Shown here one piece after another: positions 10,693-56,467 of a stretch of DNA of 64,000 nt; the first letter of the stretch is position 1, and every line of letters begins with the position of its first letter. The notes under the pieces were generated by a model. That model had not been told where the DNA came from. It saw only the letters and a list, made by a program, of their open reading frames with translations, and searched no databases. The position numbers and the translations under genes were made by a program. The stretch lies in the IMG/VR virus record IMGVR_UViG_3300044645_001661; one strand, written 5' to 3'. This stretch comes from a virus (Duplodnaviria > Caudoviricetes).

Positions 10693-11331
10693 GTCGAATA
10701 AAAAATTGTAAATATATTTTTCAGCAAATTCTTTATTATAATGTGCTTTTAAAATTCCATAAGCTGGATCTGTAGAAGACAGATGGTAATCATATCCCTT
10801 TTGATAAAGGTATGATACTTCTGTCTTTTTTGAATTTTCTATGCATTTTTTATATTGAGATATATATTGCGTAAATTGCTCTATGTATTCTTTATAAAAA
10901 CAACTATCGGAACTTTTAATCCATAATTTTTTTGAGAAGTATTTGTTTAAATCATATATTTTAGATTGTTCCTTTTTCCTATCTCCAAAATCTGATAGGT
11001 AAGAATCAATATATTTTGAATTGTATTCTGGATCTGATTTTAGTGGGTGAAAGTCTATAGTTCCAAAATATTTTTTACTTGAAGTTCCCAAATATTCAGT
11101 ACCAAGAATTGGAAACTCGTAGTTAAAGTCTGGATACAATACTAAAGACTCTGCAAAAAATTTATTTTTTATATTTAATTCACACAACCTTATCCTTCTT
11201 AATTTATCTGTCTTCCAAATGTATGAGGTTATAGTAGATTCATTTTCTGTAATGTGGTTGCTTAACCATGGGGGTAAATCTACTGATTCTAAATTATTGA
11301 ATGTGCCTAGTAAGATATCTTTTAAACTCAT
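10684..11331 (-). CDS. Ferredoxin-dependent bilin reductase (PebA/PebS-like)
   Basis: LRRIRL, LYPDFNYEFPILG, IDFHPL, YFSKKL, YD..LSSTDPAYGIL...FAEKYIYNFLF follow the FDBR pattern. Confidence 0.75.
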   Translation of the reverse strand: MSLKDILLGTFNNLESVDLPPWLSNHITENESTITSYIWKTDKLRRIRLCELNIKNKFFAESLVLYPDFNYEFPILGTEYLGTSSKKYFGTIDFHPLKSDPEYNSKYIDSYLSDFGDRKKEQSKIYDLNKYFSKKLWIKSSDSCFYKEYIEQFTQYISQYKKCIENSKKTEVSYLYQKGYDYHLSSTDPAYGILKAHYNKEFAEKYIYNFLFDLH

Positions 11332-11377
11332 GCACTTATAATATAAATTATTATAACAATATTTATTTGTTACTTTT

Positions 11378-12964
11378 ATGAGAATTTTATCAATTTTTGA
11401 TGGTCACGATGCGTCAGCAACTGTTTTAAATAATGGTGTTGTTGAGTATTATTTAAAAGAAGAAAGATTCTCTAAAGTAAAAAAGGATAAGAGGACTGAC
11501 AATATATTTAAAATTTGCTTAGAAAATTTTGTAGATAAGTGTGACTATTTTATTTTTAAAACTAATGATACTAATGAAGTAAAGGATAATAAAAATAAAA
11601 TAATTCAGCAAAAGAATAAAAATATAGTGATGATAAATTCAAATACTCATCATCACTTATATCATGCATCAATTGCTTTTTATAATAGTGGATTTGAAAA
11701 AAGTATAGTAATAGTAGTAGATTCTTCTGGTGCAATATTAAAAGATATGCATGAATGTGAATCTGTTTATATTTTGGAATATCCAGATAAAATAACACCA
11801 ATTTATAAAAATCATCATAGTTCTAACCCACAAAACTTAGATAAAATTATTGATGGATGTCAATACATTTGTAAATCACAGTATGGAATAGGAAATTTGT
11901 ATGATGGAGTGTCTATGATTATGGGACAAACCATTGATGATTGTGGTAAGGCAATGGGTTTGTCATCATATGGAAATAGAATTCCTGATTTTATTAATTT
12001 TTTTGATAAGGCAATTGATGAACCAATAGTAGCATTAGATAATGTGGAAGAAAAATTATTTTTCAATTTAATTGATAATGGAAAAAATGTAAAAATTACA
12101 GAAGATAATTATCAGTTTTATGCAGATTATTGTTTTGAGGTTCAAGTTCAAACGCAAGAAGCTATTTGTAAATTAGTAAAAAATTCTATTGAAAAAACTG
12201 GTATAAAAAATGTTTGTATAAGTGGTGGATATGGAATGAATATAATATCCAATCATTTATTGACTAAAAAATTTCCTGATATTGATTTTTATTTTGAACC
12301 TCTTTGTGATGATGGTGGAATATCTATAGGTGCAGCAATGTATGCATATAGAAAGATGACTAAAGATTCAAAAATAATTCCAATAGAAAATACTTTTGTT
12401 CATGGTTTTAATTATGATATATCAAAATATAAAGGAGATAAAATTGAAATAAAACAACTTGCTGAAATCCTATACGATAATAAATCTGTTGCAATATATA
12501 ATAATCTTGCTGAATCTGGGCAAAGGGCATTGGGTAATAGATCTATATTATTCAATGCGTTAAATCTTAATGCAAAAGAAATAGTTAATGGTATTAAAAA
12601 AAGAGAATGGTATAGACCTTTTGCTGCTATAGTTTTAGAAGAAGACGCGAATCAATATTTTGATATGGGAAATTTAAAATCAAATCCTTTTATGACAGTT
12701 TGCTTTCCAGTAAAAACTGATATAATTCCAGGTGTAACGCATGTAGATAAAACTTGCAGAGTCCAAACGGTTAATAGTGGACACCTAAAAGAACTTCTGC
12801 TAGAATTTAAAAAAATTAGCGGGCATGGAATTCTTTTGAATACAAGTTTTAATCTTGCTGGGGAACCATTAGTAGAAACACCTGAAGATGCATTTAAAAC
12901 TTTAAATAACTCATCCTTGGATTTTCTTTGGTTTTGTCAATCAAAACAGTTGTTTAATTCTTAA
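11378..12964 (+). CDS. Carbamoyltransferase (NodU/CmcH family), copy 2
   Basis: GHDAS, KEERFSKVK, HHLYHA, GKAMGLSSYG, SGGYGMN, DDGG, QRALGNRSIL, KKREWYRPFA, HVDKTCRVQT, NTSFN. Confidence 0.92.
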   Translation: MRILSIFDGHDASATVLNNGVVEYYLKEERFSKVKKDKRTDNIFKICLENFVDKCDYFIFKTNDTNEVKDNKNKIIQQKNKNIVMINSNTHHHLYHASIAFYNSGFEKSIVIVVDSSGAILKDMHECESVYILEYPDKITPIYKNHHSSNPQNLDKIIDGCQYICKSQYGIGNLYDGVSMIMGQTIDDCGKAMGLSSYGNRIPDFINFFDKAIDEPIVALDNVEEKLFFNLIDNGKNVKITEDNYQFYADYCFEVQVQTQEAICKLVKNSIEKTGIKNVCISGGYGMNIISNHLLTKKFPDIDFYFEPLCDDGGISIGAAMYAYRKMTKDSKIIPIENTFVHGFNYDISKYKGDKIEIKQLAEILYDNKSVAIYNNLAESGQRALGNRSILFNALNLNAKEIVNGIKKREWYRPFAAIVLEEDANQYFDMGNLKSNPFMTVCFPVKTDIIPGVTHVDKTCRVQTVNSGHLKELLLEFKKISGHGILLNTSFNLAGEPLVETPEDAFKTLNNSSLDFLWFCQSKQLFNS

Positions 12965-18088: not shown

Positions 18089-18841
18089 ATGAAACCTATT
18101 AAAGCAAAAGATTTACTCGAACTTGATAAAAGACTTGAAGTTGTAAAACTTCAAGGATATCCCATTCCTGAACAGGTAATATGGCAAGCAGGAAAAGGTG
18201 ATTACTCGGAAGTTCCAATTCATAACGTAAAAGTTCCCAGTCAGCAAGAGTGTGGGGAATGGATTGTTGAACAACTTCTTGCGAATGAGCGTGGGCATTG
18301 GGGTCCTCTAGAGCATCCTCAAATTACATTCTCTTGTTCTGGTTTTGTTCATAACGTAATTGTTCAAGCAAGAACTCACCGAATTGGAACTACTTGGGAT
18401 GTTCAATCGCAACGTTATACTGGTAAGCGTGTAGTTAAAGTTGCCAAGCGTGAACTTGATGTTGAAGAAGTCTTCTACGTTCGCCCTGAGGGGTTCTATA
18501 CTAATCGTAAAGGTAAGAAGTATGAATGGACTGCTGAGAACCGTCAACGCAAACTGGGGCGTATTCTGAGTGAGTGTGAAGAGTATGCTGAGTATTATGA
18601 TCAGGGAATGTGTGAAGAGCATATTCGTGATTATCTTCCCCAAGCAATTCGTCAGAACTTTGTAGTATCTTTTAATTTACGTTCTGTACTTCACTTTATG
18701 GATCTTCGTTCAAAACTTGATGCTCAACTTGAAATTCAAGCACTATGCGATGCATTTGCACCAGAACTTCAAAAATGGTCTCCAAGTGTTTGGCAATATT
18801 ATGAAGAAAAGCGTTTACACAAAGCAAGATTGTCACCCTGA
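18089..18841 (+). CDS. thyX: Flavin-dependent thymidylate synthase
   Basis: GHWGPLEH, RTHRIGTTWDVQSQRY (RHR...S.R), EHIRDYLPQA, NLRS.LHF.DLR, AQLEI. Confidence 0.92.
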   Translation: MKPIKAKDLLELDKRLEVVKLQGYPIPEQVIWQAGKGDYSEVPIHNVKVPSQQECGEWIVEQLLANERGHWGPLEHPQITFSCSGFVHNVIVQARTHRIGTTWDVQSQRYTGKRVVKVAKRELDVEEVFYVRPEGFYTNRKGKKYEWTAENRQRKLGRILSECEEYAEYYDQGMCEEHIRDYLPQAIRQNFVVSFNLRSVLHFMDLRSKLDAQLEIQALCDAFAPELQKWSPSVWQYYEEKRLHKARLSP

Positions 18842-18847
18842 GGAACT

Positions 18848-19006
18848 ATGAAAACCTGGTGTTTAAAAGACCATTTAACTGGTCATATATTTAAAGTCAT
18901 TTTTAGTGAAGATGAATTGAAAGAATATTTGAATAAAAATCCAGATATTTCTGAATGTATAGACTGTATTGAATGTGATGATGCTTCTACTATATTGATC
19001 GAATAA
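18848..19006 (+). CDS. 52-aa hypothetical protein (MKTWCLKDHLTGH...)
   Basis: Manual translation; AGGA SD. Confidence 0.5.
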   Translation: MKTWCLKDHLTGHIFKVIFSEDELKEYLNKNPDISECIDCIECDDASTILIE

Positions 19007-19042
19007 AATTAAAATAAATATTACTGTAAATTAATGTAACTT

Positions 19043-19285
19043 ATGGCGATTTATCCTATCATTAATAACGAGACTGGGGAAAAAAAGATCATTGAGATGA
19101 GTGTACATGACATTACTCAATGGTATAAAGATAATCCAGAATGGACTAGAGATTGGTCTAAAGGATGTGCATCTTTTGGAGAAGTTGGAGAATGGAAAGA
19201 TCAACTTATTAAAAAACATCCTGGATGGAATGAAGTCCTAGAAAAAGCATCTAAAGCACCCAAGTCCCTTGTTAAGAAAATCTAA
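19043..19285 (+). CDS. Conserved hypothetical protein upstream of phoH
   Basis: YPIIN.ETGE, HPGWNEVL; AATAAATA at 19013-19020. Confidence 0.65.
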   Translation: MAIYPIINNETGEKKIIEMSVHDITQWYKDNPEWTRDWSKGCASFGEVGEWKDQLIKKHPGWNEVLEKASKAPKSLVKKI

Positions 19286-20043
19286 TGGCAAGAAGAAGAA
19301 GAACTGATGAGCATCAACCAATAGGTGTTGGTATGACTGCAAAACAAATGAAAAGAAAAAAACCTGTTAATACGGAATTACTTTTAGATATTGATCCTTT
19401 AACAGAGAATCAAAAAAAATTATTCTCTTCATATAGTGAAAGTAAAAATCTTGTGGCATATGGTGCTGCTGGAACTGGTAAAACATTTATCACTTTGTAT
19501 AATGCATTGAAAGATGTTTTAAAAGAACATTCTCCTTATGAAAAGATATACATCGTTCGTTCATTAGTTGCTACCAGAGAAATTGGATTTCTTCCTGGAG
19601 ATCATGAAGATAAATCTTCTCTGTATCAAATTCCTTATAAGAACATGGTTAAATACATGTTCCAACTTCCAAGTGATACTGAATTTGAGATGTTATATGG
19701 CAACTTAAAGACACAAGGAACTATAAGTTTTTGGTCAACATCATTTCTTCGAGGAACTACATTAGATAATGCCATTATTATAGTTGATGAATTTCAAAAC
19801 TTGAATTTTCATGAACTTGATAGTATAATTACTCGTGTTGGTGAAAATACAAAAATTTGTTTTTGTGGAGATGCGACTCAATCGGATCTTGTAAAAACAA
19901 ATGAGCGTAATGGTATTATTGATTTTATGAAGATTTTACGAGTAATGCCTTCTTTTGACATCATTGAATTTGGTGTAGAGGATATTGTTCGTTCAGGTCT
20001 GTGTAAAGAATATATTATTGCAAAAACTGAGTTAGGATTTTAA
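19285..20043 (+). CDS. phoH: PhoH-like ATPase
   Basis: GAAGTGKT, REIGFLPG, FLRGTTLD, IVDEFQN, GDATQSDL. Confidence 0.95.
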   Translation: MARRRRTDEHQPIGVGMTAKQMKRKKPVNTELLLDIDPLTENQKKLFSSYSESKNLVAYGAAGTGKTFITLYNALKDVLKEHSPYEKIYIVRSLVATREIGFLPGDHEDKSSLYQIPYKNMVKYMFQLPSDTEFEMLYGNLKTQGTISFWSTSFLRGTTLDNAIIIVDEFQNLNFHELDSIITRVGENTKICFCGDATQSDLVKTNERNGIIDFMKILRVMPSFDIIEFGVEDIVRSGLCKEYIIAKTELGF

Positions 20044-50695: not shown

Positions 50696-50702
50696 ACTGT
50701 CA

Positions 50703-50739
50703 GGGGGGTTGACAACCCCCCTTTTTTATGGTGTATAAT
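50703..50739 (+). terminator. Intrinsic terminator overlapping a sigma70 promoter
   Basis: GGGGGGTT-GAC-AACCCCCC followed by T6; TTGACA 50709-50714 in the hairpin; TATAAT 50734-50739. Confidence 0.8.
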
Positions 50740-50750
50740 AATGGAGTAGT

Positions 50751-53700
50751 TTGATTTTATTATCTGTGTCCCTGGTCAATATCTACGTTGATAGTCTTAA
50801 AAGCGGCGTAAATTCTTTCAACGTTGGTCAGACAATTTATACTTATGATCATCGTCATCGCAATAGTGACTATGGTAAAGCAAAGCAGACGCTTGCTCAA
50901 ACAAAAGACCAGTACATTAATTACGCCTGGTGGACAAATGTATCTACTCGTGATGATGGTAAGGACGCTGGACACGATAAGATTATTCATTCTTGGTTGG
51001 ATACTCTTCCTGGGATGAAAAGGATTGGTGCAAAAAATAGTGAGACTTTTGAATTTGATCCAAAATTTTATAATCTTGAGATCATCGTTCAAATGATCTA
51101 TGAGAAATTTTTCTCTGGTAAGGAAAAAGTATATACTGAATTTAAACCTCGCCCATATCAACAGAAGTTTTTGCAAAAAATTGCTTCTGCATGGAATGTT
51201 AGTGAAGAATTTTTGTTGTTTGCCAAGTGCCGTGCAGGTAAGTCTGCTATGGTTCTCAAGCATATTGTAGATAGTAATTATAAACTTTCTCTGGTTTGTT
51301 CTCGTCAAAGGTCACCAGAAGCTTCTTGGGAAAATGATTCTAACGAATTCTTTCCTACAATTAAATACATTTCTGTTCAAGATCCTTCTTGGGAAACGTA
51401 TCTTGAATACTGGATGGAACGTGATGTAAATATTGTTCTATGGGGTACTGTACAGAGCTTTATTACACGTATTGATAGGATTCATAATATTGATTTTGTT
51501 GCTTTTGATGAAGCACATATTGGTGGTACTGCTAAACAGTTCACCACTCTTCGCAACAAAATTAAAAGTCGTATCTGCTATATTTCTGGGACTGCTCATA
51601 AACTTTGCTGGATGTTCCCTGATGAACGCCAAAAGTTTGTGTATACTTATTTTGATGAACAATTTGATGTTCAAAATGGTGTTTTTAAGCGTCCTAAAAT
51701 GAACATTGCTTTCGCAAAATACCAAACTTCTGCATATCAGGAAATTTTTGGTGATGATCCTGATGCTATGAAGAATATCTTCACAATGGAAGATGATAAG
51801 TTTTTGTATGAGATTCTTGTTCGGGAATTTATTCACAAATACTTTGGTCCCCAACGAGAGATTCGCATTGGAGATCGTCTTTTAAGGGGTACATATCACA
51901 TGATGGCACTTCCTAGTGTCAAAGCATGTCATGCATTTCAAAAGTTGGTGCATTGTTATTATCCTTCCCTAGTTGTTACTTCAGATACTAATAAAGATCA
52001 AGATGATATTAACCGATTTCTTGAAGAAAATTCAAAAGCACTTATCATTACACAATCTGCAAACGTTCTTGGTGTAACTGCCAAAAAAATTGATACCGTT
52101 ATTAATTGTAAAGGTGGTGAATCTATTGAGTTTTGGACTCAATTTGCTTTCCGTGGTGGTTCTGGTGTTCATGATTGGTGGGTGATTGATTTTGATGCTC
52201 AGAGGTGTCTCCGTGCCATTCACACAGCATTCCAACTTGCATGTGATAATAATCCTGCACTATCTCAATATAGTGTAGTTGACTTTACCAATATTCACGA
52301 ATGGAATGATGGATTTAAAGAACTCAGTAAAGAACTTTTTGAAGATGCCCTCGCCGCTGATGTTGAGGGAAGCATCTCTACCATTACCAGTATCGTAGAA
52401 TCTCTGGACCTTAGTAAGATTAGCGATTTTAATCTAAAACTCAAAACCGATCTTTCCACGGTTATGAAAGAATCACAACTTAACGATGAGGGTGCCAACA
52501 ACAAAAGTTGTATCGTTCGGGAGACTGAGCGTGTAAAAAAGTCTAATGACCTTGACACTTTGAAGAAGCAGACTGTCAAGGCACTTCTTGAGTCTATTCC
52601 TCTGACCATGTTCTACATCATTCGTAATGGTCAAAATGTATATTCAATCAATGATGTTATTGGTTCTGCAGTTTATCCTTCTGTTACTGGTGACTGTGAG
52701 GGTATTCTTGATGATGTGATTAGTAAGAACCCTCATAGCATTGAACTTTTAACTCGTCGTATTGGTATTGTTTCTAATAGTATTCAAAAGAGTATTAGGA
52801 ATTCCGTTTCTCATACTATTAATGAGTTGTCTGTGTCTTCTCAAATTCAACAGTCTATTCCTGTCGAACTTTTTGATCTTATGATTGATAACTGCAATGA
52901 TCTTTCTAACGTCTACATGTTTGGTGATCCTAGTGGATCTCACACTGCCCGTCTTTTAGAGCGACAAGTGGATCCAAATAACATTACCGTATGGGAGAGT
53001 TGCAATAGTCATCGTAATCGTGTAAAATATATCAATGATAGTATTAATATTGTTGACTCTCATCCAGATATGAAGTTTACCGCCATTTTAGCAAATCCTC
53101 CATATAACGATCCCACCAAAAAAGCAAAGAACAATAAACTTTGGCCTATTGTGGTTGAACAGCACCTTGAACTGGTTGCTCCTGGAGGAGACATTTGTGA
53201 AGTTACTCCTTCATCTGTTCTTGGAACAACAGGTAAAGGTAAAAAGTTTATGAAGTTGTTCTCTACAAAGTATAATCTAAAAATGATTGATTATACTGCA
53301 GATGATTACTTTACTGAGGGTGTTGCTATTTGTCGTTGGCATCTTACAAATGAACCTTATCAGGGTAAAACCACTGTCATTACTCATGATGGTTCCTTTA
53401 CTTGGGATTTGCGAGATGGTCTTCCTCTTGTTGGAGATTCTGCTCTTAAGCATTCTATCCTTAATAAGATTGCTAACTCTAACCATCCACGTATTCCTCT
53501 AAAGATGGGTCAAGCAATTGCTAAAGAAGATCATATTCCTGATGGCAAGTATGAGATCTACCACTCTTCTAAAAAAGTTAAACGCACCAATATTGTTCCT
53601 ACAACTGGAGATGTGCTAAAGTTTATTGTTCCATTCTCTTCTACGTATAAGAATGGTGGCATCTTTACCTCTAGCGGATTTGTGGGTATGTTTAATTGTT

Positions 53701-53921
53701 GGTGTCCAATTACTTCGGAAGAAGAAGGGGATCGTCTTAGTAAAATCTTTGACAATAAAATTATTCAGTTCTTTATTGATAATTACAAAAAGACTGCTGG
53801 ATTTACTCCCGCCATTAAAAATGGTGAAGTACCTGACATTACAGACTATGCTAATTTGTCTGATCAATTTGGTTTTACTGAAGAAGAAGTTGAGTATTTA
53901 AAGAAAAATAATGCCATCTAA
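50751..53921 (+). CDS. Multidomain nuclease-like / SF2 helicase / N6-adenine methyltransferase-like protein (start may be GTG 50766)
   Basis: NVGQT (T5orf172/GIY-YIG-like), AKCRAGKS, FDEAH, SGT, QFAFR, degenerate motif I FGDPSGS, ILANPPY, C-terminal TRD-like region. Confidence 0.75.
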   Translation: MILLSVSLVNIYVDSLKSGVNSFNVGQTIYTYDHRHRNSDYGKAKQTLAQTKDQYINYAWWTNVSTRDDGKDAGHDKIIHSWLDTLPGMKRIGAKNSETFEFDPKFYNLEIIVQMIYEKFFSGKEKVYTEFKPRPYQQKFLQKIASAWNVSEEFLLFAKCRAGKSAMVLKHIVDSNYKLSLVCSRQRSPEASWENDSNEFFPTIKYISVQDPSWETYLEYWMERDVNIVLWGTVQSFITRIDRIHNIDFVAFDEAHIGGTAKQFTTLRNKIKSRICYISGTAHKLCWMFPDERQKFVYTYFDEQFDVQNGVFKRPKMNIAFAKYQTSAYQEIFGDDPDAMKNIFTMEDDKFLYEILVREFIHKYFGPQREIRIGDRLLRGTYHMMALPSVKACHAFQKLVHCYYPSLVVTSDTNKDQDDINRFLEENSKALIITQSANVLGVTAKKIDTVINCKGGESIEFWTQFAFRGGSGVHDWWVIDFDAQRCLRAIHTAFQLACDNNPALSQYSVVDFTNIHEWNDGFKELSKELFEDALAADVEGSISTITSIVESLDLSKISDFNLKLKTDLSTVMKESQLNDEGANNKSCIVRETERVKKSNDLDTLKKQTVKALLESIPLTMFYIIRNGQNVYSINDVIGSAVYPSVTGDCEGILDDVISKNPHSIELLTRRIGIVSNSIQKSIRNSVSHTINELSVSSQIQQSIPVELFDLMIDNCNDLSNVYMFGDPSGSHTARLLERQVDPNNITVWESCNSHRNRVKYINDSINIVDSHPDMKFTAILANPPYNDPTKKAKNNKLWPIVVEQHLELVAPGGDICEVTPSSVLGTTGKGKKFMKLFSTKYNLKMIDYTADDYFTEGVAICRWHLTNEPYQGKTTVITHDGSFTWDLRDGLPLVGDSALKHSILNKIANSNHPRIPLKMGQAIAKEDHIPDGKYEIYHSSKKVKRTNIVPTTGDVLKFIVPFSSTYKNGGIFTSSGFVGMFNCWCPITSEEEGDRLSKIFDNKIIQFFIDNYKKTAGFTPAIKNGEVPDITDYANLSDQFGFTEEEVEYLKKNNAI

Positions 53922-54327
53922 AAATAAACATAACAAAAAGCATGGATCTCAACTTGAGAGATCTGATGAGAGAATCAAACAGACGCAGGAGGTATTTACT
54001 CCTCCTGCCCTAATTGATAAAATGATTTTGGATATTCCAGAAGAGGTTCTTAAAGATCCAAGTTCTAAATTTATTGATAACTGTGCTGGTGACGGTAATT
54101 TTTTAGTTCAATTACTTAAAGCACTTAGACAATATCATACTGAACAGCATATTGTAGATAATATGTTATATGCTGTGGAGTTAATGGAAGATAATCATAA
54201 AGAATTATGTAAAAGAATTGGGGTGTCCACCTCCCATCCTCACTATGTGTGCTATGATGCCCTGGAATATCATTACCGATTTGATGGTACGTTAGGACCA
54301 ATTACCTTAGACCAATTTTTGAACTGA
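53911..54327 (+). CDS. Small AdoMet-binding methyltransferase fragment (motifs X, I-III only)
   Basis: QEVFTP, FIDNCAGDGNF, YAVEL, DALEY; no NPPY/DPPY. Confidence 0.8.
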   Translation: MPSKNKHNKKHGSQLERSDERIKQTQEVFTPPALIDKMILDIPEEVLKDPSSKFIDNCAGDGNFLVQLLKALRQYHTEQHIVDNMLYAVELMEDNHKELCKRIGVSTSHPHYVCYDALEYHYRFDGTLGPITLDQFLN

Positions 54328-54388
54328 CCACTCTGCTGCCCCAGGGCGGCATATTTTGCTGTATAATAACTTTATTGAGATTGAGACC

Positions 54389-55618
54389 ATGATTCTTCGC
54401 CCCCACCAGCACGAAGCATTGCAGATCATGCTTAAGGAGCGTCTTGGCATCGTTGTATTCCCCACTGGTGGCGGCAAGAGTCTTGTTGCCATTATGGATG
54501 CCAAGCGTCAATTTGACGAGGGTAATAAAACTATTGTTGTTGTTGCTCCTCGCCTCATGCTTGCTCGGCAATTGTCTTCCGAGTTTCTTGAGCACATCAC
54601 CAATGCTTCTGTGATGCATGTTCATTCTAAAAGTGATCTTCCCTACTTTACTACTACAGATCCTAATCAGATCTATGCTTGGAATTATCATACTAATGGT
54701 AATAAATTGATTGTTACCACTTATCATTCTCTTCATCGTATTCAAGAGTCTGGTATTAAGGTTGATAGCATTTACTTTGATGAAGCACACAACTCTACTA
54801 AAAGGAATTTCTTCGATTCCACTAAGTATTTTTCTGTTAATTCTGATCGCTGTTATTTCTTTACTGCTACTCCTAAGTATTCTGCTACTTCTTCCAAACC
54901 AGGTATGAATAATAGTGATGTTTATGGTCGGGTTATTTGCAATGTTCCTGCACCTGCACTGGTCAATAATGGATCATTGATTCCTCCTAAAATTAATCCC
55001 ATTAATATCGGTAGCATTCGTCTTAAGGGCGAAGAGGCGGCAGAACGCGATTGTATGACTTTGTTGGATACTATTTGTAATGAAGACCATATGGATAAAG
55101 TTTTGATTGCTGCTCCTAACACTAAGGTTATGGTCCGTATGCTTGCTGAGACTGATTTTATGAAAGAAGTGCGGTCTATGGGGTATGATCTCCTCTGGAT
55201 TACCAGCAAACATGGTGCATTTTTGAATGATCAGAAAATCTCCCGTGAACAGTTTTTTCAATTGGTCAATCAGTTTGGTGCAGATCCTGACAAAAAATTT
55301 ATCGTCATGCATTATTCTATTTTGAGTGAAGGTATCTCTGTTCCTGGTCTTACTTCTTTGATTATGATGCGTCAAATGAATGTTATTGAGATGTGCCAAT
55401 CTGTTGGTCGTGTTTTGCGTCTTCATCTTGATGATGTCAAGCGTATTCAGAATGGTACACTTACTCCAGGCAAACTTAGCGACTACACCAAATCATTCGG
55501 TCTAGTTCATGTTCCTGTTTACAGTAATGTTGGTATTGCTACTGTTAAGCGTCTCCAAAATATCGTAGATACGGTATTTGTACAAGGTCAACCTGCAATT
55601 TCTACTATTAAGCGATGA
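54389..55618 (+). CDS. SF2 helicase (ResIII/DEAD-like)
   Basis: LRPHQ, FPTGGGKS, FDEAH, TATP, LSEGISVPGL, QSVGRVLR; TGTATAAT at 54360-54367. Confidence 0.88.
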   Translation: MILRPHQHEALQIMLKERLGIVVFPTGGGKSLVAIMDAKRQFDEGNKTIVVVAPRLMLARQLSSEFLEHITNASVMHVHSKSDLPYFTTTDPNQIYAWNYHTNGNKLIVTTYHSLHRIQESGIKVDSIYFDEAHNSTKRNFFDSTKYFSVNSDRCYFFTATPKYSATSSKPGMNNSDVYGRVICNVPAPALVNNGSLIPPKINPINIGSIRLKGEEAAERDCMTLLDTICNEDHMDKVLIAAPNTKVMVRMLAETDFMKEVRSMGYDLLWITSKHGAFLNDQKISREQFFQLVNQFGADPDKKFIVMHYSILSEGISVPGLTSLIMMRQMNVIEMCQSVGRVLRLHLDDVKRIQNGTLTPGKLSDYTKSFGLVHVPVYSNVGIATVKRLQNIVDTVFVQGQPAISTIKR

Positions 55619-55791: not shown

Positions 55792-55986
55792 ATGAAATCT
55801 AAATTCATCTACGTCTCTCCTATCACCAAAAAAGCAAAGTACAACTTTTCTTCCATAATGAATTCCCTTCATTCTTGTAGGGTTAAAGATGAAAAGGATG
55901 ATATGATTTATTTGGAATCTCTTAATAAGATGTATTATTTTTGGGTCAACAAAAAGAAAGATCCTAATTGGAAAATTGAAAAATAA
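55792..55986 (+). CDS. Hypothetical protein
   Basis: 64-aa ORF in a co-directional run. Confidence 0.55.
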   Translation: MKSKFIYVSPITKKAKYNFSSIMNSLHSCRVKDEKDDMIYLESLNKMYYFWVNKKKDPNWKIEK

Positions 55987-56467
55987 TATGTGGCAGATAA
56001 AACATCTTGAATATGATTATGCAGATTATTTTGACAAATGGATATCATATTTTAAATATAAATCTGATTTACTTCAAGATACTACAAACAACTGCCTATC
56101 TAAAAATTGCTTTGCAACAAAAAATCTGCTAAAATTTGTAGGTGATGTTGAATTTTTAGATATTATTGAAGAATTAAAATCTACTTGTGAGGAATATGTA
56201 AATAAAAAACTAAAATACTTTTATTTGCATATGATTGATTATGAAAATGGTGGTGAAATGGCACCACATAAACACGATCATAATGAAGACTATAGTTTTA
56301 TTCTTTATCTTAATTCTTGTAATGATGGAGATACCGTTCTCCATCTTGATTCTGAAATAAAAATAAAACCAGTTAAAAATAAAATGGTATTATTTTCTTC
56401 GGATATTGTTCATTCTGCTATTTTTTCCAATCAAAAAAGAATTCTTGTTGGGGGACTAAAACTATGA
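55976..56467 (+). CDS. 2OG-Fe(II) oxygenase-like protein
   Basis: HKHDH, FILYLN...GDT, HSA, KRILVG. Confidence 0.7.
   Translation: MKNNMWQIKHLEYDYADYFDKWISYFKYKSDLLQDTTNNCLSKNCFATKNLLKFVGDVEFLDIIEELKSTCEEYVNKKLKYFYLHMIDYENGGEMAPHKHDHNEDYSFILYLNSCNDGDTVLHLDSEIKIKPVKNKMVLFSSDIVHSAIFSNQKRILVGGLKL

Follow-up and report, generated by a model that had tools for sequence, protein, structure and literature searches.

Gene organization of the locus

We analysed a stretch of viral DNA of 64,000 nt (IMG/VR record IMGVR_UViG_3300044645_001661; further, the window), which comes from a lake cyanophage, a T4-like cyanomyovirus. Its nearest named relatives by protein similarity are P-SSM2, S-CAM7, ACG-2014f and MA10; megablast of the locus against GenBank phages yielded zero matches, the relatives being recognizable at the protein level only. 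Three open reading frames (ORFs) on the plus strand follow the 3' end of a gene encoding a tail fibre of 1942 aa, which terminates in a Peptidase_S74 chaperone (Table 1). The first, large gene starts at a TTG codon and encodes protein P0001; its database copy, P0155, starts at a GTG codon at 50766 and has 1051 aa, so that 5 should be added to the P0155 residue numbers in order to obtain those of P0001, which are used here unless P0155 is named. The second, small gene overlaps the large one by 11 nt and encodes a protein of 138 aa, P0002 (subunit C, or simply C). The third ORF (54356-55618) probably starts at the ATG codon at 54389, as follows from the comparison with P-SSM2 gp039. In the combined reading that we find the most likely, the overlapping large and small genes probably encode a two-subunit restriction-modification enzyme of a Type ISP-like kind.

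Two terminator-like hairpins enclose exactly the large and the small gene. All motifs quoted in a first-pass annotation of the sequence are present in the translations, that is, NVGQT, AKCRAGKS, DEAH, SGT, QFAFRGGS, FGDPSGS (724-730) and NPPY (782-785) in the large protein, and QEVFTP, FIDNCAGDGNF, YAVEL and DALEY in the small one, where NPPY is missing. Conservation supports both genes as real: the large protein has over 300 homologues, and the small one is represented by 468 clusters (E < 1e-10).

Table 1. Features of the locus. Residue numbers are those of P0001.
Feature	Coordinates	Strand	Evidence
Terminator-like hairpin at the end of the tail-fibre gene	50702-50722	+	9-bp stem with 6 GC pairs, T-run
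Promoter-like TTGACA / 19 nt / TATAAT	50709-50739	+	read from sequence; absent from the consensus-scan list
Large gene, 1056 aa (P0001)	50751-53921	+	
T5orf172/GIY-YIG-like domain, residues 6-121	50766-51113	+	AlphaFold DB clusters; weak Pfam and PDB hints
Superfamily 2 (SF2) two-lobe ATPase (Walker A AKCRAGKS, DEAH, SGT, QFAFRGGS), residues ~129-536	51135-52358	+	invariant motifs; RadD match
Low-confidence linker, then helical coupler-like region, residues ~537-715	52359-52895	+	AlphaFold2 model; LlaBIII alignment
N-module, non-canonical Rossmann-like half (FGDPSGSH, ITVWE, NIVD), residues 716-773	52896-53069	+	
Catalytic half, gamma-class N6-adenine methyltransferase (beta-4 MKFTAILANPPY, motifs IV-VIII), with a tail resembling a target recognition domain (TRD), residues 774-1056	53070-53918	+	
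Subunit C, stand-alone half binding S-adenosylmethionine (AdoMet; motifs X, I, II, III)	53911-54327	+	profiles, PHROG, CamA match, complex model
Terminator-like hairpin 3' of the small gene, then a TATAAT box for the helicase gene	54334-54351 (hairpin)	+	
SF2 helicase (ResIII + Helicase_C), core cyanomyovirus gene	54389-55618	+	Pfam, synteny

The small protein corresponds to a cofactor-binding half

The canonical AdoMet-binding motifs X (EVFTP), I (FIDNCAGDGNF), II (YAVE) and III (DAL) are all located on P0002, whose chain ends approximately 15 residues after motif III. In the profile search against solved structures, C aligned with residues 23-161 of CamA, which form its N-terminal half (E 3e-12), and the match stops at the "FD" opening strand beta-4, just before NPPY. 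Thus, C is the cofactor-binding half in its canonical form, with the cut lying exactly between motifs III and IV. It matches phrog_4376; as a single sequence, it scores 18.9 bits against N6_Mtase (PF02384), which is below the cut-off of 20.4. Identity of C is 59-86% across 80 loci, and the residues of motifs X, I and II are invariant in 22 cyanophage copies, being alike in loci with and without the N-module.

The profile of C retrieved 2962 protein clusters, including the 468 mentioned above, and most of them are stand-alone proteins of 120-200 aa. Word-based search yielded no longer relatives of C; these were found by exhaustive profile search instead. When bacterial genomes were scanned with the small-subunit alignment, one locus was observed, on a cyanophage-like contig in a metagenome-assembled genome.

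Between motifs II and III of C (residues 100-114), C100, H109 and H111 are invariant in the cyanophage copies, and C114 is nearly so. The pattern C-x8-H-x-H-x2-C is a possible metal site, lacking in more distant homologues.

Genes paired with C

The survey of partners covered 80 IMG/VR loci encoding C, of which 79 had an upstream ORF, and in each case the upstream gene was classified. A gene with the NPPY motif was observed directly upstream of C in 74 loci, mostly overlapping it by 4-26 nt, whereas four of the remaining five loci are truncated by the end of a contig, the fifth having an interposed helicase. Hence the co-occurrence of the large and small gene types across phages, which the first-pass annotation proposed to check, is near exceptionless.

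Most NPPY partners (n = 49) begin at motif IV (MKFTLAIGNPPY...), comprise 190-280 aa and have no N-half. As most related cyanophages pair C with such a minimal protein, a combination that would constitute a simple two-subunit methylase, the NPPY half and C together look like a cassette to which the motor, along with the N-module, was attached. The latter, an extra segment of 55-65 aa (GDPxGxH ... VWE ...) preceding NPPY, is present in 22 partners, 11 of which are fused to the 700-aa motor module, similarly to the window protein. Another N-terminal domain is found in the last three.

Among named phages, gp036/gp037 of P-SSM2, both annotated as hypothetical, form a minimal pair of NPPY and C, and S-CAM7 has two pairs of NPPY and C, one of each kind. 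In Klebsiella T4-like phages, gp114 consists of a LEM-3 GIY-YIG domain (E 2.7e-15) and a part with NPPF, and gp115, the homologue of C, overlaps it.

The S-CAM7 pairs (L004, NC_031927) are situated at 11117-12561 and 18462-19477, one of them being preceded by a separate motor gene; the upstream ORF of the minimal pair may hold a remnant of the N-module (ICCLEYNN..H). A close relative (L013:4986-6008, 84% identity in the methylase part) has NAPY, not NPPY, at motif IV, and its site is possibly inactive or altered.

One-chain relatives were observed in both the normal and the permuted order. P0027, a chain of 386 aa in the normal order, shares 42% identity with C over its residues 12-121 (E 2e-29), and NPPF is found at residue 134, about 10 residues past the C-like part, in a region 28% identical to the NPPY region of the window. 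In P0021, P0045 and P0139, NPPY or NPPF is at the start and the C-like half at the end, with P0021 present on two independent phage-like contigs. P0085 and P0153 are single chains of a helicase, a C-like half and NPPY. As the normal, permuted and split forms have all been found, the two pieces belong to one enzyme family. In a distant metagenomic locus (L086:1-3417), the gene of a DEAD/ResIII helicase is followed by that of a complete gamma-class methylase of 564 aa, and the overlapping gene of a C-like half (P0035) comes next.

Predicted complex of C and the NPPY half

We modelled residues 706-1056 of the large protein, including the N-module, together with C and AdoMet, using its own alignment for each protein. 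The ipSAE score was 0.78, compared to 0.00 in the best of three controls. The mark applied to this score is passed by 58 of 80 solved complexes and by 2 of 110 mismatched pairs, this calibration being only rough here due to the own alignments and the presence of the ligand. At least 70% of the contacts were common to three runs, and the partner had pLDDT (predicted local distance difference test) of at least 81.

The tightest contacts were predicted between residues 776-781 of the large protein (beta-4) and residues 53-57 of C (beta-1, motif I), and between N782 of NPPY and T30 of motif X; the modelled arrangement is that of an undivided Rossmann methylase. Hence the predicted complex, as supposed in the first-pass annotation, has the AdoMet half beside NPPY, with the motif I strand and motif X of C placed against it. 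Between residues 720 and 770, the N-module contributes nothing to the confident interface, which includes just its last residues, 771-772. We consider it highly probable that in the cyanophage family C and the NPPY half form a two-subunit adenine methylase.

Architecture of the large protein

In the large protein, Pfam recognizes an Eco57I methylase (residues 753-853; 29.7 bits against a cut-off of 25.3), and PHROG assigns phrog_22930 and phrog_3689, while NCBIfam and PADLOC have no family for it. The profile search against solved structures aligned it to residues 94-174 of M.TaqI (E 1e-6), from motif IV onward only. The AlphaFold2 (AF2) model of the full chain (pLDDT 80; predicted template modelling score, pTM, 0.68) comprises, in the P0155 numbering, an alpha/beta N-terminal domain (1-116) and a pair of RecA-like lobes, then a linker of low confidence (556-593) and a helical region (596-710), and finally the N-module (716-763), which leads through beta-4 (771-776) into the methylase core with its TRD-like tail.

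LlaBIII (4xqk, E 1.6e-18) is at the top of the Foldseek ranking of PDB structures for this protein, followed by LlaGI, CamA, RadD and SauUSI. In VIA, 682 residues were aligned with LlaBIII (Z 19.8, root-mean-square deviation (rmsd) 8.6; model residues 124-1025 on chain residues 174-1438), and 317 residues of the motor with RadD (Z 23.5, rmsd 3.5). The large protein, having LlaBIII as its top structural match, thus has a Type ISP-like build, with the ATPase, coupler, methylase and TRD on one chain, in line with the comparison to Type ISP enzymes made at the first pass. Walker A and DEAH are invariant among its homologues, and motif VI is without the second arginine.

In loci L014-L018 and L020, the motor module is carried by two ORFs that differ in frame and overlap by ~19 nt near residue 600 of the large protein. 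The linker is the site of the break, which yields a protein of ~600 aa with the nuclease-like domain and the ATPase, and a protein of 430-470 aa with the coupler, the N-module and NPPY. Matching proteins of 593 aa are frequent in the database.

The N-terminal domain, folded alone, has pLDDT 89. In AlphaFold DB it matches clusters bearing the name T5orf172 or GIY-YIG nuclease (E from 2e-3 to 3e-2, probability ~1, TM ~0.5), and Pfam gives hints below the threshold in 2 of 10 members (GIY-YIG, E 0.023; T5orf172, E 0.15). Thus, the matches of predicted structures suggest a fold of the GIY-YIG superfamily (T5orf172-like), in agreement with the nuclease-like N-terminus proposed earlier. Residues G, T, K, D, H, E and F of this domain are invariant and R is near-invariant, which is compatible with an active site but is no proof of nuclease activity. 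Since a LlaBIII-like chain is here joined to a T5orf172/GIY-YIG-like domain, the layout is Type ISP-like with a different nuclease-type domain.

The segment containing FGDPSGS was initially taken for a degenerate motif I. This does not hold, as the N-module is conserved (DPxGxH, VWE), Rossmann-like in the AF2 model, and travels with the motor. In 15 fused proteins, DPSG, VW and the downstream His are invariant, and the Glu of VWE is nearly so. We found the N-module in no locus lacking the motor module; in L045 and L078 the N-module is attached to a minimal NPPY protein of the P-SSM2 type. Judging by these distributions of sequences, the motor, coupler and N-module behave as one evolutionary unit, and the NPPY half with C as another. 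When the N-module was compared with C by hhalign, only a motif X-like stretch, IPxxLxDxM, could be aligned, with probability 3.5%, hence the homology of the N-module to the canonical N-half is unproven. With a conserved and folded N-module in cis and a separate C, the large protein has two candidate N-halves.

Proposed enzyme

In the proposed enzyme, C would be the AdoMet-binding half, with motifs X, I, II and III, of a gamma-class N6-adenine DNA methyltransferase. It would dock by parallel strand pairing, beta-1 of C on beta-4 of the C-terminal NPPY/TRD half of the large protein, and this docking would rebuild a single Rossmann-fold active site. The T5orf172/GIY-YIG-like domain, the SF2 ATPase and the helical coupler would be responsible for ATP-driven translocation and cleavage of unmarked DNA, so that the system would mark the phage DNA and attack unmarked DNA of the host or a competitor.

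We are not equally confident in all parts of this scheme. We lean, if slightly, towards C and not the cis N-module as the supplier of the cofactor site in the window's large protein. Translocation along, and cutting of, unmodified DNA by the complex in the Type ISP fashion is a tenable supposition, to which we would give a little less than even credence. We infer, rather than observe, the role of C as the cofactor source here, the ATPase and nuclease activities, and the biological role, be it exclusion by restriction-modification, attack on the host DNA or self-protection.

Of the first-pass proposal of a two-subunit complementing methylase, the core is retained, given the gene pairing, the partners starting at motif IV, the fused forms, the predicted interface and the ISP-like layout, whereas the premise of a degenerate motif I and the inclusion of the second helicase are abandoned.

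Alternative readings

Several results weigh against the enzyme as proposed. In the AF2 model of the large protein alone, the N-module is folded as beta1-alphaA-beta2-alphaB-beta3 with pLDDT ~90, running into beta-4, and hence in cis it could take the site given to C in the complex model. Its motif I resembles EPACAHG of M.TaqI. Conservation among distant lineages is 48% for the N-module, 34% for the catalytic half and 23% for the tail. The passing score of the complex may stem from likeness to solved one-chain methylases, and the own alignments, in which many rows are without the N-module, may bias the model. In L086, the canonical one-chain methylase P0275 has all motifs from X to IV and still is followed by an overlapping C, thus C is not always required to complete a fold.

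The remaining points concern the N-terminal domain. Type ISP enzymes have a nuclease of the Mrr type rather than of the GIY-YIG type, and the N-terminal domain had no clear match among solved GIY-YIG structures: Foldseek found no match in PDB at E <= 0.001, and the weak GIY-YIG rows in VIA, with 91 residues aligned to At-HIGLE (Z 4.6, rmsd 3.6) and 92 to Slx1 (Z 4.0, rmsd 4.7), are not above unrelated rows.

The first alternative is that the large protein is self-sufficient and binds AdoMet by its own N-module, with C being an accessory, that is, a regulator, a specificity or stability factor, or an alternative N-half. The complete Rossmann sheet of the cis model, which includes the N-module, would be expected in this case, as would the purifying selection on the N-module and the retention of C after the complete canonical methylase of L086. 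However, the N-module has no significant similarity to canonical N-halves in the hhalign profile comparison, and the alignment with solved structures covers only motif IV and what follows it. The Klebsiella counterpart of the N-module has neither DPxGxH nor the acidic residues of motif II, and C is kept there. Further, C is kept in all 22 loci with the N-module, with the same invariant cofactor residues, which argues that the N-module cannot replace it, and the complex model places C at beta-4 even when the N-module is present. We therefore consider self-sufficiency of the large protein rather unlikely and retain C as the preferred source of the cofactor site.

The second alternative keeps the methylase and dispenses with restriction: the pair would be a motor-coupled methylase serving counter-defence only, e.g. 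by processive self-methylation or by protection of the phage DNA similar to that by P1 DarB, and the T5orf172-like domain would bind DNA without cutting it. Most relatives are indeed minimal two-piece methylases with neither a motor nor a nuclease-like domain, orphan methylases are common in lytic phages, T5orf172 domains are annotated as DNA-binding, and the second arginine is missing from motif VI. On the other hand, the match to Type ISP enzymes is at the level of the whole layout, the N-terminal domain retains the conserved residues R, D, H and E, Klebsiella phages have the same methylase half joined to a genuine GIY-YIG nuclease domain, and the domain order of DarB is reversed. We regard this reading as improbable.

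Finally, it is very hard to believe that the small gene is debris of a broken or duplicated methylase, or a lone actor (e.g. sequestering AdoMet) with no tie to the upstream gene: C does end in RFD, a remnant of the beginning of beta-4 such as one would expect in a truncated duplicate, and its distant homologue P0039 has no adjacent NPPY gene, but the identity level and invariant cofactor motifs of C over the 80 loci, the number of clusters at E < 1e-10, the near-universal pairing with gene overlap, and the existence of fused forms all speak against it.

Returning to the two-subunit enzyme, the cis N-module and the trans C may exchange at beta-4 as a switch, so that C docked would mean methylation and the N-module in place, no methylation but a translocating nuclease; we treat this as a speculative and rather improbable extension. 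If it were true, the phage could tune modification versus restriction via the amount of the small subunit.

Neighbouring gene, expression signals and side observations

The first-pass annotation drew attention to a second SF2 helicase with its own -10 box next to the pair. The box is present, whereas membership of the helicase in the system is not supported, and it is a neighbour by synteny. It was found in 419 cyanophage records, compared to 59 for C, and in S-CAM7 and ACG-2014f it is situated 14-20 kb away from the C pair. Hence we rejected the helicase as a third component, being a near-core gene that is located apart from the pair elsewhere and has its own transcription signals. In P-SSM2 (L001, 7538-8926) and many IMG/VR loci, a gene of ~1.2 kb (gp038, 462 aa, no Pfam hit) is situated between C and the helicase. 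Just 3' of the helicase, a 163-aa ORF (55976-56467) matches PF13640 of the 2OG-Fe(II) oxygenase superfamily with E 6.5e-7; the small ORFs around it were assigned to no family.

As for the promoter proposed upstream of the large gene, both boxes are there, but the spacer is outside the usual 16-18 nt and the site overlaps the terminator hairpin of the tail-fibre gene. It is the long spacer that explains why the site was not listed by the consensus scan. In this region (50702-50739), TTGACA is located in the loop and the stem of the hairpin, so that the termination and initiation signals share bases.

Two candidate mechanisms of expression were considered and rejected. A programmed frameshift joining both genes is at variance with the overlap length, which varies among loci (4, 11, 14, 17, 20 and 26 nt); such variation fits termination-reinitiation rather than conservation of a slippery site. 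An internal start at M774, which would free the NPPY half, was rejected as a general mechanism, as there is no Shine-Dalgarno-like sequence and L017, L020 and L021 have another residue in place of the Met.

Comparison with known systems

Similarly to the Type ISP enzymes LlaGI and LlaBIII (PDB 5ffj, 4xqk), the large protein comprises, in one chain, a nuclease-type N-terminal domain, an SF2 ATPase, a helical coupler, a gamma-class N6-adenine methylase and a TRD. It differs from them in several respects. The N-terminal domain is T5orf172/GIY-YIG-like, not Mrr/PD-(D/E)xK, and accordingly the alignment with LlaBIII begins only at model residue 124. The canonical AdoMet half resides on a separate protein, while its place in cis is held by the non-canonical N-module. 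The enzyme, moreover, is encoded by a lytic T4-like cyanophage; a nuclease-motor-methylase of this kind in such a phage suggests that restriction-like enzymes are used against host or rival DNA. P1 DarB, which is packaged into the virion, has an N-terminal methylase and a C-terminal helicase, unlike the window order of a nuclease-like domain, ATPase and methylase.

Amino-methyltransferases are treated as single-chain folds, with classes differing by circular permutation. The origin of this permutation is an old question with few natural intermediates; Jeltsch in 1999 and Bujnicki in 2002 reportedly argued for duplication and shuffling of gene segments. As compared to gamma-class N6_Mtase/Eco57I enzymes such as M.TaqI, CamA and M.BseCI, NPPY and motifs X, I, II and III are all present across the window pair, but the fold is divided over two chains between motifs III and IV, and the order is permuted, with motifs IV-VIII and the TRD first and X-III second. 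In the literature we found no description of a natural adenine methylase split into cofactor and catalytic halves, nor of its fusion to a T5orf172-helicase module.

As far as sequences allow one to judge, the family appears to keep living stages of circular permutation, that is, the normal one-chain form, the full enzyme with an extra half, the split pair and the permuted one-chain form. With all stages available in related phages, the permutation route is open to phylogeny and biochemistry. As the genes of the minimal pair are annotated as hypothetical in P-SSM2 and many other records, current surveys probably count too few methylases in cyanophages.

In jumbo phages, adenine methylases resembling M.EcoKI and having a circularly permuted order have been described (Iyer et al. 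2021, PMC7824862); they belong to the same broad clade, and P0021, P0045 and P0139 are one-chain permutants of this kind. The terms searched for in the text of that paper gave no mention of a two-gene split form or of a T5orf172-helicase fusion.

A parallel for the division itself is provided by cytosine-5 methyltransferases. M.AquI and M.EcoHK31I naturally consist of two polypeptides, the split being near the variable region and motif IX, with motif X of M.EcoHK31I staying in the larger subunit (PMC3404938). The likeness is in the methyltransferase fold assembled from two separately encoded polypeptides, as predicted for the window pair. The window enzyme, as predicted, is an amino-methylase, split into a cofactor half and a catalytic half, with a permuted gene order and a fused motor; if our reading is true, this natural heterodimeric adenine methylase with self-assembling halves could serve as a scaffold for split-enzyme tools.

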